64,000 nt of DNA, from the IMG/VR virus record IMGVR_UViG_3300033121_000983, positions 1-64,000 of that record. One strand, given 5' to 3'. Made by a program: the position numbers and the translations under genes. Position 1 is the first letter of the stretch, and every line of letters starts with the position of its first letter. The stretch comes from a virus. Lineage: Duplodnaviria; Caudoviricetes. The notes under the pieces were generated by a model, which did not search any database, was not told where the DNA came from, and saw only the letters and a program-made list of their open reading frames with translations. Shown here piece by piece: positions 3,433 to 45,140 of this stretch.

Positions 3433-3472
3433 AGTTAACTCCTGCCGCCCGCCCAAAGCGGGTGTGATAGCT

Positions 3473-3504
3473 AAAAAACGGCGGCCGGCGTACGCCGGCC
3501 GCCG
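3473..3504 (-). terminator. Intrinsic terminator
   Basis: Perfect 26-bp palindrome CGGCGGCCGGCGTACGCCGGCCGCCG followed by T6 on the - strand. Confidence 0.8.
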
Positions 3505-7183: not shown

Positions 7184-7204
7184 CTACCTAATCCGCTGAA
7201 GGCT

Positions 7205-7238
7205 AAAAACTAGCGGTGCCCAATGTGGGCACCGCTAG
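7205..7238 (-). terminator. Intrinsic terminator
   Basis: 13-bp stem CTAGCGGTGCCCA/TGGGCACCGCTAG plus T5 on the - strand. Confidence 0.8.
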
Positions 7239-33929: not shown

Positions 33930-34012
33930 TTGGATCTCCACGTCAGACGGTTCTGGATTTGAAGAATGAATTTCAGTCTGCGGCGACGCAGTCGCCGCAG
34001 GGTTACGAAAAC

Positions 34013-34046
34013 AAGGCCGGACGCGACAAGCGTCCGGCCTTTTTTT
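34013..34046. terminator. Probably bidirectional intrinsic terminator
   Basis: Stem AAGGCCGGACGC/GCGTCCGGCCTT, with a T-run on + and an A-rich left flank. Confidence 0.75.
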
Positions 34047-34106
34047 CGTGCGTATTGATGTATAATTCCTTCCTGGTAAGGAAGGTCTAGTGCCAGAATT
34101 GCAAAA

Positions 34107-35944: not shown

Positions 35945-38900
35945 ATGTTGTACATGCGAAAGCCGTCGCGCGCCGAACAGCGCCGACTCCACCAGCTTAC
36001 CGATCCTGGGCGTCGCCGAGAAGACGCGATTGCTGCAGCGCAGGCGCGACGCCAGCCTGCCGATATTGCGGCGCGTATCATCACGGAACACTTGAGCGCT
36101 GAACTGTCGTTAGAAACACAGGCACAGACAGCCATTGATCAGCTGCGCCACGCGCTTTCTGGTACACAGCGGACAGCGCCCGGTAGCCTTGTGAGCTTCT
36201 TGCCCGGTATCTTTCGGCTTAACGGGCAGCCCTATACACTTGACCGGCATTTTGTGTTTGAGCCGTTGTTCGAAACGCGGATGCCGTTGAGCATCACCGT
36301 TAAGAGCGGCCGCCAGGTCGGGAAATGTGTCCGCGTCTCCAGCGAACCAACAGTCTGGATGGCGGACGGTCGGCTCATCGGCACTGCCGATGTGCAGGCG
36401 GGCGACGCGCTACTCAGTTACGACGCGCACTTTCGGCCGGTTAAGGGCCGCGTGGTCAACATCTTCAATAGCGGCGTGAAACGCTGCTACCGCGTCACCA
36501 CGCGCTTGGGCGCCGAGCTGGAGATCACGAAACAGCACCGCATCCGGACGCTCTCTGGCTACAAGCGACTAGAGCAGCTACAGGTCGGCGATCGCATCTG
36601 TGCCGCCCGGCGTTCGGGTATTTTCGGCGCGCAGCGCGTGCCGGAAGCGCGCGTCGTGCTGACTGCATTACTGCTTGGAGATGGCAACTGCGGTACAGCG
36701 CGAACGTGTACGCTAACCAGTGAGACGGATGCCGTTATCACGGCAGCTCAGCAATGGCCTACGTTGGCGCCGGTCTGTATGGTTCGGCCGCGCGGCGGTG
36801 CAACGCGGGAAATTATCTTCTCGCGCGATGCGTGTTATCCGCTACGACAGTGGTTAAATGAGGATGGTCTGTGGGGTAAGTACTCCTATGAAAAGACAAT
36901 CCCAGCCTGGGTCTTCCGGTTGTCTCGCGTGCAGACGCGGCAGTTCATCTCATGGCTGTTCGCCACCGACGGCTCGCTCAAGGCGCCGCGTACGGTAGAG
37001 TATTACTCCACCAGCCGCACGCTAGCCCGACAGGTCCGCAGTCTGCTGGCGAAGTTCGGCATCCCTGCGAGTATCACGCCAAAGGCCGCTGGTTATCGCA
37101 CCGCAGACGGAACATACAAACGCTGCCGCGACACCTGGACTGTCCGCGTAGAGACGCGCAGCGGTCTGATGGCGTTCTTCGAGAACTTTGACGTGCCCGG
37201 TCGCCCGGCGTTTTCTTTGCGCGACGTCGTCGAAAACAATAATCGCGACACGCTCCCGCAGGCAGAAACTCAAGCGTTGATTGACCAGCTGGCCGTTGGG
37301 TTGCGCGGTAAGCACCGCACGTCATTTGCTACAAGCGGTCTGCGCCAGACGCTCAAGTACCCGCCACAGCGCGCGAAGGTGCGTGCATACTGCGGGCACT
37401 TCCGTAAACACGAAGCACCGACCCAGTTTATTGAGTCGCTAGAGACCGCGTGTTCTGAAGACGTCATCTGGGACGAGATTGTCAGCATCGTCGACATCGG
37501 CAAACACGAGACTGTCGACTTTGAAGTGGACGATGAACACAATTTCGTGCTCGACGGTATCGACGTTCACAACAGTCAGACGCAAGCCGCGCGTCTGATT
37601 GCCATGTGCGCGACGTTTGCAAACTTTCGCGTGCTTGTTGTCATGCCGCTGTTCGAATTGGTGCGTAAGTTCAGCTCCAATTACGTACGGCCGATGATCA
37701 CCACGTCGCCGTTGGCTTCACTGTGGCAGGATCCTACGAACGCAGGTAACGTCCTGCAGCGTAACTTCCGTCACAACGATTCTACGATTTTCTTCTCCTT
37801 CGCTTCGACGAGTGCGGATCGTACCCGCGGTGTGCCGGCAACTTGTCTGGCGATCGACGAGTTGCAGGATATCGACATTTCGTTCATCCCCATCATGCGC
37901 GAAACGATGTCGGGCTCTCCGTACCCGAACATCGAAATCAAGACTGGTACTCCCAAGACCTACGACAACACCATGCAGGTCGAATGGGAAGATACATCGG
38001 CCGCTGAATACATGGTGCGTTGCCGCGCGTGCAACAAGGAAAACTATCCGCGGGCTGACCTAGACCTCGAGGCCATGATGGGCCCCAGGATTGTCACGCG
38101 TCCGATTACTCCGCGCGAACCAGGAATTGTGTGCGCTAAGTGCGGCCGACCTATCAACCCACGCGCTGACGGACGTTGGATCCACACCAACCCCGAGCAA
38201 CGTGGACTGAACGACGGCCTGCATATTCCGCAGATCGTGGTTCCGCAGCACTACGAAAACGATACACGCTGGCGGTTGCTACAGGCGAAGCGTCGCGGCG
38301 AAATGAACACGCCGGCTTACGCGTTCTTTAACGAAGTTCTGGGTGAGAGCTACGACACCGGCTCGAAGCTGGTGACGATTGAGGATCTTCGTCGAATCGC
38401 CATCCTGCATGAAAACAAGTTGGCGACTGCGTTGACGCTCGACCCATCACGCTACATTCGCCGTGTGCTTGGAGTGGACTGGGGTGGCGGCGGTGAGGAC
38501 ATGATCAGCTATACCACCGTGGCTGTCGTCGGTATGCGCCCAGACGGCGTGCTGGAAGTTATTTACGGCTGGCGCTGTCCGAACATTCATGATCACAACT
38601 TGGAAGTGCGCACAATCCTGCGCCTGTTCTCGCTGTTCAAGTGCCACTTTATCGCACACGACTTCAACGGCATCGGTGACCTACAGGAAACGATGATGCA
38701 CAACGCAGGGTTCCCTGCAGAGCTCATTCATCCTGTGAGCTACATCGCACACGCAAACGGCGCAATGATGATCGAGGTCCCCGCTAACGAAGATACGCAC
38801 CAGCGCTGGCATTTCCGGCTCGTGAAATCGCGCAGCCTGACATTCCTGGCGCGCTTGATTCGTCAGCAGCGCGTGCTGACGTTCCAGTACGACTACAAGC

Positions 38901-39187
38901 ACCAAGGGGACCGCGGCTTGCTGCGCGACTTTACCACGCTGGTCCAGGACTTTCTGGATAGCCGCGCGGGACGCAATATCTACAACGTGCTGCACAATAA
39001 GAAGCTGGGGCCTGACGACTTTGCGCATGCCGTGAACTACGCGGCGTGTACGTTGTTTCATGATCGCGGCGTCTGGCCATCATTGCTGGAAACGACGTCA
39101 GAAGACGCGGAGTTCGAGATCGCTAACGTGCCATCATTGTCCAGCATCATGTCGAGCCCGTTCGACACGCGTGCTGAAATTTTCTAG
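35945..39187 (+). CDS. terL: Terminase large subunit (GpA-like) with intein
   Basis: Walker A 'KSGRQVGK|S', 'DRTRGV', 'IDELQD', 'GTPKT', two CxxC, nuclease 'GVDWGG', 'PDDFAHA'. Confidence 0.92.
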   Translation: MLYMRKPSRAEQRRLHQLTDPGRRREDAIAAAQARRQPADIAARIITEHLSAELSLETQAQTAIDQLRHALSGTQRTAPGSLVSFLPGIFRLNGQPYTLDRHFVFEPLFETRMPLSITVKSGRQVGKCVRVSSEPTVWMADGRLIGTADVQAGDALLSYDAHFRPVKGRVVNIFNSGVKRCYRVTTRLGAELEITKQHRIRTLSGYKRLEQLQVGDRICAARRSGIFGAQRVPEARVVLTALLLGDGNCGTARTCTLTSETDAVITAAQQWPTLAPVCMVRPRGGATREIIFSRDACYPLRQWLNEDGLWGKYSYEKTIPAWVFRLSRVQTRQFISWLFATDGSLKAPRTVEYYSTSRTLARQVRSLLAKFGIPASITPKAAGYRTADGTYKRCRDTWTVRVETRSGLMAFFENFDVPGRPAFSLRDVVENNNRDTLPQAETQALIDQLAVGLRGKHRTSFATSGLRQTLKYPPQRAKVRAYCGHFRKHEAPTQFIESLETACSEDVIWDEIVSIVDIGKHETVDFEVDDEHNFVLDGIDVHNSQTQAARLIAMCATFANFRVLVVMPLFELVRKFSSNYVRPMITTSPLASLWQDPTNAGNVLQRNFRHNDSTIFFSFASTSADRTRGVPATCLAIDELQDIDISFIPIMRETMSGSPYPNIEIKTGTPKTYDNTMQVEWEDTSAAEYMVRCRACNKENYPRADLDLEAMMGPRIVTRPITPREPGIVCAKCGRPINPRADGRWIHTNPEQRGLNDGLHIPQIVVPQHYENDTRWRLLQAKRRGEMNTPAYAFFNEVLGESYDTGSKLVTIEDLRRIAILHENKLATALTLDPSRYIRRVLGVDWGGGGEDMISYTTVAVVGMRPDGVLEVIYGWRCPNIHDHNLEVRTILRLFSLFKCHFIAHDFNGIGDLQETMMHNAGFPAELIHPVSYIAHANGAMMIEVPANEDTHQRWHFRLVKSRSLTFLARLIRQQRVLTFQYDYKHQGDRGLLRDFTTLVQDFLDSRAGRNIYNVLHNKKLGPDDFAHAVNYAACTLFHDRGVWPSLLETTSEDAEFEIANVPSLSSIMSSPFDTRAEIF
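36326..37573 (+). mobile_element. 416-aa intein with LAGLIDADG homing endonuclease
   Basis: Begins with Cys after GK; 'EITKQH' block B; 'LLLGDG' and 'LFATDG'; ends 'HNFVLDGIDVHN' followed by Ser+1. Confidence 0.95.
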
Positions 39188-39234: not shown

Positions 39235-39240
39235 ATGCGC

Positions 39241-39371
39241 AACGCCGGACACCTTATTCAGGTGCTCACGTCGTCGCCGTTCTGGGTCTCGCCAACCCTA
39301 CCCCGTCCGCAGTCACTGTGCCGACTGTGTACAAAGAAGCCTGCACCTCTCACTGTGTGCAGGCTTTTTTT
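39241..39371 (+). ncRNA. Candidate ~130-nt sRNA
   Basis: Bounded by a promoter and a terminator between convergent genes; three small hairpins. Confidence 0.4.
39337..39371 (+). terminator. Intrinsic terminator
   Basis: Stem AAGCCTGCAC/GTGCAGGCTT plus T-run. Confidence 0.8.
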
Positions 39372-43190: not shown

Positions 43191-43207
43191 TTTCCTTTGA
43201 CGTTAAA
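43189..43207. promoter_or_regulatory. Repeated operator-like motif (copy 3)
   Basis: AGTTTCCTTTGACGTTAAA between convergent stop codons. Confidence 0.6.
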
Positions 43208-43919
43208 TCAAAGTCATCGCGTCGCCGTTCTCGAGCGGCAGCTGCTGTAGCTGTGCCATAAGCTGCCGCAGCAGGAGCTGCGTGTCGTCGGCCATGTCAT
43301 CGGCGTCATCTTGTTTGGCGCCGAGAACGCCTGTGGCTTCGGTCGGATTACCCAGCGCTAGCGAATCGTAGTCTGGCTGGAAATAGCTGCCAGCGGCCAC
43401 GCGTAGCACGTTAGGCGGGCTGTAAAGACCTTCCTCGCGCAACAGCTTGCCAATGAAAGCGGAGATCTCAGGCACGAACAGTTGTTCCGTGCCGTACTCC
43501 TCATCCGGCAGCAGCAGCATCGCTTCCGTAATCGCCCAGGCGCATTCTCGCGTGTCCGGCAGTGCTACGATATCGAACCGTAGACCGTTGCCGCAGAGCG
43601 CCTCAGTAAGCGTGCAGAACATCGGCTGCCGCTGAAAGAAGTCGTCAGTCTGCACGATGCTCATCGCAGCCATGAGCTTGCCGAAGTTGAACTTGTCCAG
43701 ACGGATTCGGTAATCTTCGGCAAGCTCATGCTGCAAGGTAGACGGGGTCCAGTCCAGGCATTCGAGCCCGAACCGATCAACACAGAACGTCAACAGCGTT
43801 GTGCCAAATACGTCGTCGCCGTGAAACAGCCGTAACAACTCCGGCTCTGTCAGCTTGCGGCGGACATTAACCGGCGTGTCGTTGTCCGACAACAGTACAG
43901 AGTTGGCAGCTGCCGACAT
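43203..43919 (-). CDS. Hypothetical protein
   Basis: 238-aa ORF. Confidence 0.75.
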   Translation of the reverse strand: MSAAANSVLLSDNDTPVNVRRKLTEPELLRLFHGDDVFGTTLLTFCVDRFGLECLDWTPSTLQHELAEDYRIRLDKFNFGKLMAAMSIVQTDDFFQRQPMFCTLTEALCGNGLRFDIVALPDTRECAWAITEAMLLLPDEEYGTEQLFVPEISAFIGKLLREEGLYSPPNVLRVAAGSYFQPDYDSLALGNPTEATGVLGAKQDDADDMADDTQLLLRQLMAQLQQLPLENGDAMTLI

Positions 43920-43947: not shown

Positions 43948-44325
43948 CTAGAAGCGCAGGCCGGTCGCGTTCAGACGAATTTCCACGCGATAGGCGTGGA
44001 TACGCCCGGCGCCGACCAGCACGTTACCTTCACTATCGACGGCGTACGGCGCGTCGTTCAGCGCAGGCTGCGGATTGGCCAGGCCCATTTTCTGGGCGAC
44101 TTGCCGTGCAAAGTCGGTCGCTGCCTGGCTGCCAAGTTTTTCGATCGCGAATTGCATTCCGCGACGCATCAGAGCGGGAGACGCTTCAAGCGTCACCACT
44201 CCTTCCTGATCTCCGACGTATGTGGCGGCGCGCGTGCCGCCTTCTTTTGTGCGCTCCTGCTGCACGACGTTGAAATCAACGGCGGCGGCAGACGGTTGTG
44301 CGGTGTATGCGTCCGCTGCGAACAT
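43948..44325 (-). CDS. Hypothetical protein
   Basis: TAGGAG RBS and its own promoter. Confidence 0.75.
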   Translation of the reverse strand: MFAADAYTAQPSAAAVDFNVVQQERTKEGGTRAATYVGDQEGVVTLEASPALMRRGMQFAIEKLGSQAATDFARQVAQKMGLANPQPALNDAPYAVDSEGNVLVGAGRIHAYRVEIRLNATGLRF

Positions 44326-44368
44326 CTTTCAGACTCCTAATAGACTTGCGCAAATTGCGCTTAACCAC

Positions 44369-44397
44369 AGTGTAGCTGCCCGTACGAACAGCCGCAA
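44369..44397 (-). promoter_or_regulatory. Sigma70-like promoter
   Basis: TTGCGG-N17-TACACT. Confidence 0.55.
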
Positions 44398-44429
44398 CGG
44401 CCGATAGCTAAAGCGAAGGCCCCTGGTAA

Positions 44430-44678
44430 GAGAAAGCCGACGGCTAACCGTCCTGCTGAACGAAGCTGTAACGCGCTCATGCTTGAAGAATTAGCGCCGC
44501 GGTTAAGCGGAACTATTTCAACAAACATGAGCCACGTCAACAGCTTCGTCCAACAGGACGATAGCCAGAAACACGACGCAAGCCGGCACTTAGAAACACC
44601 TTCGCCGTATTCGGTGTATTCGGCGAAGCCCGCCCGCGAGCGGAGCCTTAGACACTGCCCCTAGGTGCCGGCGTTGCG
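44430..44678 (-). ncRNA. Candidate structured RNA (multibranch domain plus 125-nt rod)
   Basis: Long imperfect inverted repeats; several + strand A.C mismatches become G.U pairs on the - strand. Confidence 0.6.
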
Positions 44679-45140
44679 CTACTTGCCTGCGGCGTACTCA
44701 GCTTGCGCCTCCGCGGTGAGGCAAGCCGGGCATGCGTCGCATGTACACGCGGCGCCGACGCTATCGCTGTCATCGACAGCATCAGCGCCGCTCTGAAGCG
44801 AACTGTACAGTTCCTTCAGGAACGGGTTTGTGATTGGCGGGCTGGTGATCAGCTCGTCGCCGATCTCTTCCGCCAGCAGACGCTCCGGGTCGAACTCGTT
44901 GAGCAACTCTTCGAGTTCGAGCTCGTCGATTGCCACGCCCGCGAGGCCATCATCGAGCATGTCGTGCTGCGCGTCCAGCGCAGCTTGTCGGCGGTAGAGC
45001 TTGGCCAGCTCTCGGTCTTGCCGACGGTCGTCATCATCGCAGACTCGATCTTCGTCGTCGACGAGTGCCAGGTCGGCACGCCCCGAGAGGCGGCTGAACT
45101 GACGCAAGAGCATGGGTTCTACGGCAGATGCGATAAACAT
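44679..45140 (-). CDS. Small highly acidic hypothetical protein with C-terminal Cys cluster
   Basis: GAAAGG RBS; CTCDACPAC. Confidence 0.7.
   Translation of the reverse strand: MFIASAVEPMLLRQFSRLSGRADLALVDDEDRVCDDDDRRQDRELAKLYRRQAALDAQHDMLDDGLAGVAIDELELEELLNEFDPERLLAEEIGDELITSPPITNPFLKELYSSLQSGADAVDDSDSVGAACTCDACPACLTAEAQAEYAAGK

Follow-up and report, generated by a model that had tools for sequence, protein, structure and literature searches.

What kind of element occupies the 353-nt gap at 44326-44678 of this phage genome, and on which strand does it act? An earlier note, made from the letters of the same DNA, had described a highly structured RNA at 44430-44678 that could not be assigned to a family, and had proposed several roles for it. 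Our analysis covers the window, which makes up the opening 64 kb of an IMG/VR virus record of 106 kb with an estimated completeness of ~52%, together with relatives among uncultivated viral contigs. Two corrections to the earlier note concern strand and extent. Since all genes flanking the gap are encoded on the minus strand, the structured RNA is minus-sense, and the structured gap reaches 44326, beyond the limits given before.

Genomic context of the gap

As had been noted, the structure starts right after the stop of a gene for an acidic protein with a C-terminal Cys cluster (44679..45140, minus strand). The protein has 153 aa on identical contigs; its ORF remains open to 45200, corresponding to 173 aa. 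No Pfam or PHROG match was obtained for it. The gene is the last in a long minus-strand block devoted to tail fibres and glycosyltransferases. Genes stay on the minus strand from past 64000 as far as 43203; the junction at 44.7 kb ends this block, and gene direction flips two genes further on.

Downstream of the gap lie, both on the minus strand, the gene for a conserved small alpha/beta protein of 125 aa (43948..44325) and a gene for a protein of 238 aa (43203-43919). The 125-aa protein gave a good structure model (pLDDT 82; best VIA-align Z 5.3), for which Foldseek returned no match at E<=0.001. The C-terminal ~30 residues of this protein (DAPYAVD...AYRVEIRLN) match 20 repeated stretches in P0005, a giant metagenomic protein of 5319 aa.

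On more than ten independent contigs, gene callers placed no small ORF in the gap, and neither a tRNA nor a tmRNA is present. The position of the gap between co-directional genes argues that it is transcribed, including the long hairpin described below.

Fold of the gap

The minus strand of the gap (44326-44678) folds with -174.1 kcal/mol and z = -7.75, and none of 100 shuffles was as good; the plus strand reaches -140.7 kcal/mol and z = -6.1. A comparison with shuffles was one of the checks suggested earlier, and the proposed structure thus passes it. The fold consists of a multibranch domain (44577-44678), a rod (44441-44567) and a weaker region containing the promoter and the leader of the downstream gene.

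The rod (44441..44567, minus strand) is a 127-nt hairpin of 54 bp with a 6-nt apical loop, and its largest internal loop is 2x2. Folded alone, it has -87.3 kcal/mol in the sense and -66.5 kcal/mol in the antisense orientation. All six complementary segments that had been picked out by eye (GGCTA/TAGCC to CCGC/GCGG) are located where they were said to be. The earlier note had also counted about five A.C mismatches on the plus strand that become G.U on the minus strand. The direction of this asymmetry is right, and the count was too low: on the minus strand, the rod contains seven G.U pairs and no A.C 1x1 mismatch. When both strands of the full 106-kb genome were ranked with a purpose-written dynamic-programming scan for hairpins, the rod came out as the strongest hairpin, with a score of 55 vs 32 for the runner-up.

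The 5' multibranch domain (44577..44678, minus strand) is defined by the MFE and centroid folds and by inverted repeats. Its 13-bp closing stem, GCCGGCAC/GTGCCGGC, was recovered as previously described and pairs 44666-44678 with 44577-44589; it encloses an 8-bp inner stem and three small hairpins. A GUGU/ACAC pseudoknot had been considered for this domain. We dropped it: in the close relative L011, ACAC is changed to ACAA, and no compensating change is found.

Comparison with known RNA families and repeats

The statement that the RNA cannot be assigned to a family holds. Rfam 15, applied at gathering thresholds to the whole window and six relatives, gave no match, and at E<=10 the region itself produced four chance-level matches only (two microRNA precursors, a CRISPR repeat and H19). 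Self-cleaving ribozymes (hammerhead, twister, pistol, hatchet, HDV-like) were not among the Rfam matches even at E<=10, and the ribozyme suggested earlier thus finds no support. We rejected the idea of a 6S-like decoy. The rod shares with 6S RNA a rod-like shape and a length of one to two hundred nucleotides, but it lacks a central bubble resembling an open promoter, lacks its own promoter and, even at E<=10, does not match RF00013.

A match to a MITE or REP-like element, or to an Rfam family, had been named as an outcome that would speak against a novel RNA; neither was found. The structure is present as a single copy in the genome, with no dispersed copies. A 27-nt pattern from the rod is absent from both the IMG/VR viral contigs and the prokaryote genomes, so the rod is not a repeat or MITE. 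The gap had no blastn match among INPHARED phages or PLSDB plasmids, nor did megablast of the surrounding 10 kb return one. The rod is a real, selected RNA structure outside any curated family, as the comparison with relatives documents.

Conservation and selection in close lineages

Relatives were found via the downstream 125-aa protein in protein collections and via the 238-aa protein, which is better conserved; scanning viral contigs with either flanking protein on its own yielded nothing. Five lineages (window/L008-L011; L002-L004; L007; L075; L012/L076-L078) have flanking proteins that are 50-98% identical. In all five, a gap of 285-387 nt harbours a rod of 108-127 nt at the same place, and variable small hairpins precede it. 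In the three relatives tested (L002, L007 and L012/L076), the whole gap folds with z values of -6.8 to -8.8. An extra structured 5' domain is found in every 60%-GC lineage. Its sequence and architecture differ among lineages, with variable hairpins at this place in L002, L007, L012 and L075.

Rod sequences are mostly unalignable between lineages. As MAFFT failed to align the L007 and L012 rods with the rest, covariation counts are limited to three close sequences, complemented by independent folds. In the alignment of window, L011 and L002, 95% of cells are paired, with eight pairs changed on both sides, 12 changed on one side and five broken. Controls in which the partners were slid by 1-3 columns had 34-49% paired cells and 0-3 double changes. 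A direct comparison of the window with L002 yields seven double changes, 12 single changes and six broken pairs. A covariance model built from the three close sequences also recognises the L012, L076 and L007 rods, with E 1e-6 to 1e-4; all of these hits lie at the syntenic position, and none is on the antisense strand.

The strand under selection can be read from two further observations. The sense fold of the rod beats the antisense fold by 20-27 kcal/mol in three lineages, and the rods of 16 lineages, each counted once, contain ~50 G.U pairs vs five A.C 1x1 mismatches. This asymmetry shows that the selected molecule is the gene-sense strand, most simply RNA. Together with the compensatory pair changes, the G.U excess on the minus strand bears out the earlier view that RNA structure is under selection here: the rod is genuine, and it is as minus-strand RNA that it has been selected. 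Loops and bulges have no sequence that is shared among lineages, and every apical loop is different.

Between the near-identical phages of the window and L011 (44326-44685, minus strand, vs L011:1-336), the 3' 190 nt of the gap, i.e. the 3' arm of the rod through the start codon, are 100% identical, with ~22 substitutions in the 5' arm of the rod and the multibranch domain. This pattern in the two sequences suggests a recombination breakpoint near the apex of the rod.

A junction hairpin throughout the clade

Members of the 238-aa protein family are frequent among uncultivated viral contigs of 180-235 kb; among cultured phages, the family has no relative. Using it as a guide, we found in ~20 lineages with GC contents of 40-67% a hairpin of 15-55 bp just upstream of the gene for a distant homolog (94-125 aa) of the 125-aa protein. 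Nearly all of these junction hairpins have at least 17 bp, and they are kept although flanking proteins fall to ~25-30% identity (~27-35% for the 238-aa proteins). In a 190-kb relative (G001), the junction hairpin is the sole hairpin above threshold; in a 235-kb relative (G003), it ranks third to fourth in strength. The lineage of the window carries the most expanded version of this clade hairpin.

Template switching during replication is able to create and mend hairpins without selection. The rod could then be a functionless palindrome that is kept perfect in this way, its G.U excess stemming from strand-biased C-to-T mutation, and the sense strand of the gap is indeed rich in G and T (G 108, T 95, C 92, A 65). 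We regard this as highly improbable, given that the hairpin is retained at one syntenic junction in ~20 lineages across the protein divergence described above, and that nothing comparable occurs elsewhere in genomes of 106-235 kb.

The earlier note had favoured a novel phage ncRNA. A selected RNA structure that lacks an Rfam match is what we see; the free-standing ncRNA is not borne out, as no promoter was found upstream of the structure. A trans-acting role would have to be filled by a stable RNA of ~240 nt, comprising multibranch domain and rod, that is released from the 3'-UTR or made from an unrecognised promoter. It would pair up with a phage protein or serve as a dsRNA decoy or sponge, with RNase III or a host defence that senses dsRNA as examples of its target. 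Such an RNA would account for the maintenance of all 54 bp by compensatory change, a surplus for a mere barrier, for the extra structured 5' domain in the 60%-GC lineages, for the position as strongest hairpin in two genomes and for the failure to match known families. Beyond the missing promoter-like site, it sits badly with the unconserved loops and bulges, with a length that ranges from 15 to 55 bp across the clade and with a 5' domain whose architecture is not conserved. A ribonucleoprotein with the upstream protein, another of the roles suggested, is unlikely since this protein is acidic and poorly conserved across lineages that retain the hairpin. Overall, we consider a trans-acting ncRNA unlikely.

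The hairpin-plus-motif cassette

The rod is followed by a 28-nt spacer, UCGGCUUUCUCUUACCAGGGGCCUUCGC (44413..44440, minus strand), and by TTTAGCTATCGG (44401..44412, minus strand), a copy of a clade-wide motif with the consensus TTTAGCTATYRG. In the relatives, the motif lies 7-36 nt downstream of the junction hairpin. Allowing one mismatch, we counted 3-19 copies of it in each of five relative genomes and 0-2 in controls; the copies are strand-biased in three of the five genomes. A hairpin precedes all 18 copies inspected (including G001, G002 and G004 copies in L057-L074). In the 16 of these copies that lie away from the junction, it is an 8-13 bp GC stem abutting a T-run of ~7-9 that merges into the motif. 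Two ordinary cassettes of this type occur in the window, with the motif at 3464-3475 and 7196-7207 on the minus strand.

Immediately after some copies of TTTAGCTATYRG come a Shine-Dalgarno sequence and a start codon; after others, a -10-like GCGTCATAAT appears ~40 nt away. The motif thus has the appearance of a signal for starting or one associated with promoters; judged from this arrangement, it probably is the promoter or start signal of these phages, and the hairpins look like the stops of the units before them. Searching the literature for the motif string brought up unrelated papers only. At 34005-34049, the window contains a perfect bidirectional intrinsic terminator (A-run, 20-nt arms that are 95% complementary, T-run) without the motif, so stop signals and motif are separable modules.

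Comparative data place the rod within this clade-wide hairpin-plus-motif cassette at operon boundaries. The order of hairpin, motif and next gene, all in the same orientation, is the same as in the canonical terminators of the clade. The junction hairpin differs from the ordinary cassettes in two respects: it is longer in every genome (15-55 vs 8-13 bp), and it does not abut the T-run, the distance being 4-36 nt. This punctuation cassette of an uncultivated large-phage clade is previously undescribed.

Beyond the motif, the downstream gene has its own sigma70-like promoter, TTGCGG-N17-TACACT (44369..44397, minus strand), in agreement with the earlier reading. TTGC-N17-TA(C/G)ACT is conserved in five 60%-GC lineages, in which the hexamers and the 17-nt spacing are kept and the spacer diverges. 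The leader that follows (44326..44368, minus strand) contains a hairpin, GCGCAAATTGCGC, at 44348-44360 and the Shine-Dalgarno sequence AGGAG at 44334-44338.

Four relatives encode an RNA polymerase beta homolog (PF00562, E ~1e-52, in ORFs of 1057-1500 aa; matches at G001:65064-66107, G002:143300-144343, G003:68785-69780 and G004:167577-168554); none was found on the window's own record, which is 52% complete. On the strength of these homologs, the clade probably has its own multisubunit RNA polymerase. Searches of five genomes detected no sigma70 region 2, and a T7-type RNA polymerase was matched neither in five genomes nor in the control genomes.

With a conserved DNA motif always adjoining the hairpin and a polymerase gene in relatives, one may ask if the element acts as DNA, i.e. 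as a cruciform or single-strand hairpin that serves replication, packaging or recombination, or as a structural part of a promoter for the multisubunit RNA polymerase of the clade. G.T wobbles are tolerated in single-stranded DNA as well, and the locus is ~5 kb from the terminase gene. Yet the strong G.U bias falls on the transcribed sense strand, the ordinary copies with their GC stem and ~7-9 T have the look of intrinsic terminators, the element sits between co-directional genes, and neither iterons nor an AT-rich unwinding region were found. A DNA-level role thus appears improbable to us.

Proposed function at the operon end

The explanation that we prefer, and to which we give about an even chance of being right, is that the rod is a cis-acting RNA hairpin at the end of an operon that insulates the next gene, stabilises the 3' end of the upstream mRNA and is probably cut by RNase III. 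It would mark the 3' boundary of the minus-strand late block, which spans >20 kb and codes for tail fibres and glycosyltransferases. As polymerase passes from 44567 to 44441, the nascent RNA would zip into the 54-bp helix behind the branched 100-nt domain. In the manner of extra-long-stem end-of-operon terminators, the helix could keep arriving elongation complexes away from the promoter cassette of the next gene, made up of TTTAGCTATCGG and TTGCGG-17-TACACT, and it would give the upstream mRNA a 3' end that is impassable to exonucleases. In read-through RNA, the rod would form several turns of near-perfect dsRNA to be cut by host RNase III, the presence of which we assume, and such a cut would uncouple the 125-aa gene from the upstream message.

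How would such a barrier relate to known terminators? The rod supplies the stable GC-rich hairpin of an intrinsic terminator, placed at the end of the minus-strand block. A U-tract would have to start 0-2 nt after the stem; the stem of the rod is followed by UCGGCUUUCUCUU, in which the first U-run begins 5 nt out and is interrupted. The sole terminator-like prediction nearby is an alternative 5-bp hairpin. With no adjacent U-tract, the rod is not a canonical terminator, and as the junction hairpins of the relatives also have no U-tract directly after them, canonical intrinsic termination is not expected at this junction.

Terminator stems average 7-9 bp, and in the case of TerR, at the end of an operon of plasmid pLS20, resistance to processive antitermination comes with a stem of more than 14 bp (PMC10325885). 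The rod is similar in that a hairpin well over the 7-9 bp norm, with 54 bp also over the 14-bp mark, stands at the end of a very long operon, and in that length matters, sequence is irrelevant and imperfections of the stem are tolerated (PMC10325885). In contrast to the rod, with its 54 bp and branched 5' domain, TerR has a 15-bp stem, and its 10-U tract is required. In the absence of a functional U-tract next to it, we file the rod neither as a canonical intrinsic nor as a TerR-type terminator. That the published long-stem terminator still needed its U-tract (PMC10325885) counts against our preferred reading. So do the dimensions of the structure, as 54 bp and a 100-nt branched domain far exceed what insulation, an exonuclease block or RNase III would need.

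The earlier note had listed an RNase III substrate among its options, and for a 54-bp helix this is plausible. With only small interruptions, the rod is well beyond the roughly 20 bp of dsRNA that make an RNase III site. In phages, RNase III hairpins such as the T7 R0.3-R18.5 sites and the lambda sib retroregulator are likewise intergenic or 3'-terminal dsRNA elements of polycistronic mRNAs, where they uncouple neighbouring genes and set mRNA stability. Their stems have ~20 bp, in T7 with a characteristic internal loop, whereas the rod is a nearly uninterrupted 54-bp helix for which cleavage is a prediction. Neither RNase III nor a dsRBD is encoded in the five genomes searched, a further point against our preferred reading.

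Could processing be the whole function? The rod would then be a pure RNase III site in a read-through polycistronic mRNA, comparable to the T7 R sites and without a role in termination, which separates the downstream message and sets the stability of both halves. The junction hairpins stand apart from the U-run, which canonical terminators in these genomes do not, and this fits the proposal, as does their length, nearly all of them (>=17 bp) being near or above the roughly two helical turns that RNase III prefers. However, a conserved internal loop like that of the T7 sites is missing, and the downstream gene already has a conserved promoter cassette, so that processing is not needed for its expression. 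We therefore judge a site for processing alone to be distinctly unlikely.

A bolder reading is that the rod represents a new RNA family, specific to this uncultivated clade of 180-235 kb phages with their own multisubunit polymerase. It would be either a stop signal for the phage polymerase that depends on hairpin length and is independent of a U-tract, or a dsRNA released from the 3'-UTR that titrates a host dsRNA-recognising factor late in infection; this factor would be RNase III or a defence sensor. We think of this reading as rather unlikely.

For a deep, wholly uncultivated clade without known transcription signals, the analysis defines a conserved, selected RNA and an operon-punctuation cassette. 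If the rod is a dedicated stop or processing signal, it offers a way into the question of how late transcription units are delimited in these phages, and it would extend the principle of a terminator hierarchy based on stem length from a plasmid to phages. If it is released as dsRNA, it would represent a novel type of RNA effector in phages.

Further features of the window

The gene for the terminase large subunit (35945-39187, plus strand) is split by an intein with a LAGLIDADG homing-endonuclease domain (Pfam matches: Intein_splicing, LAGLIDADG_3 and GpA_ATPase). The L002 lineage shows this arrangement as well. Identity of the intein-bearing terminase to that of any cultured phage is only ~23%.

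The 12-nt string GCGCAACGCCGG occurs at 39237-39248 (plus strand) and at 44670-44681 (minus strand), the latter at the start of the structured gap. The former copy is part of a short non-coding unit after the terminase gene, just downstream of the promoter-like TTGTCG-17-TATGAT and upstream of an intrinsic terminator at ~39340-39370. Sharing of this string as a chance 12-mer match is unlikely (roughly 0.01).
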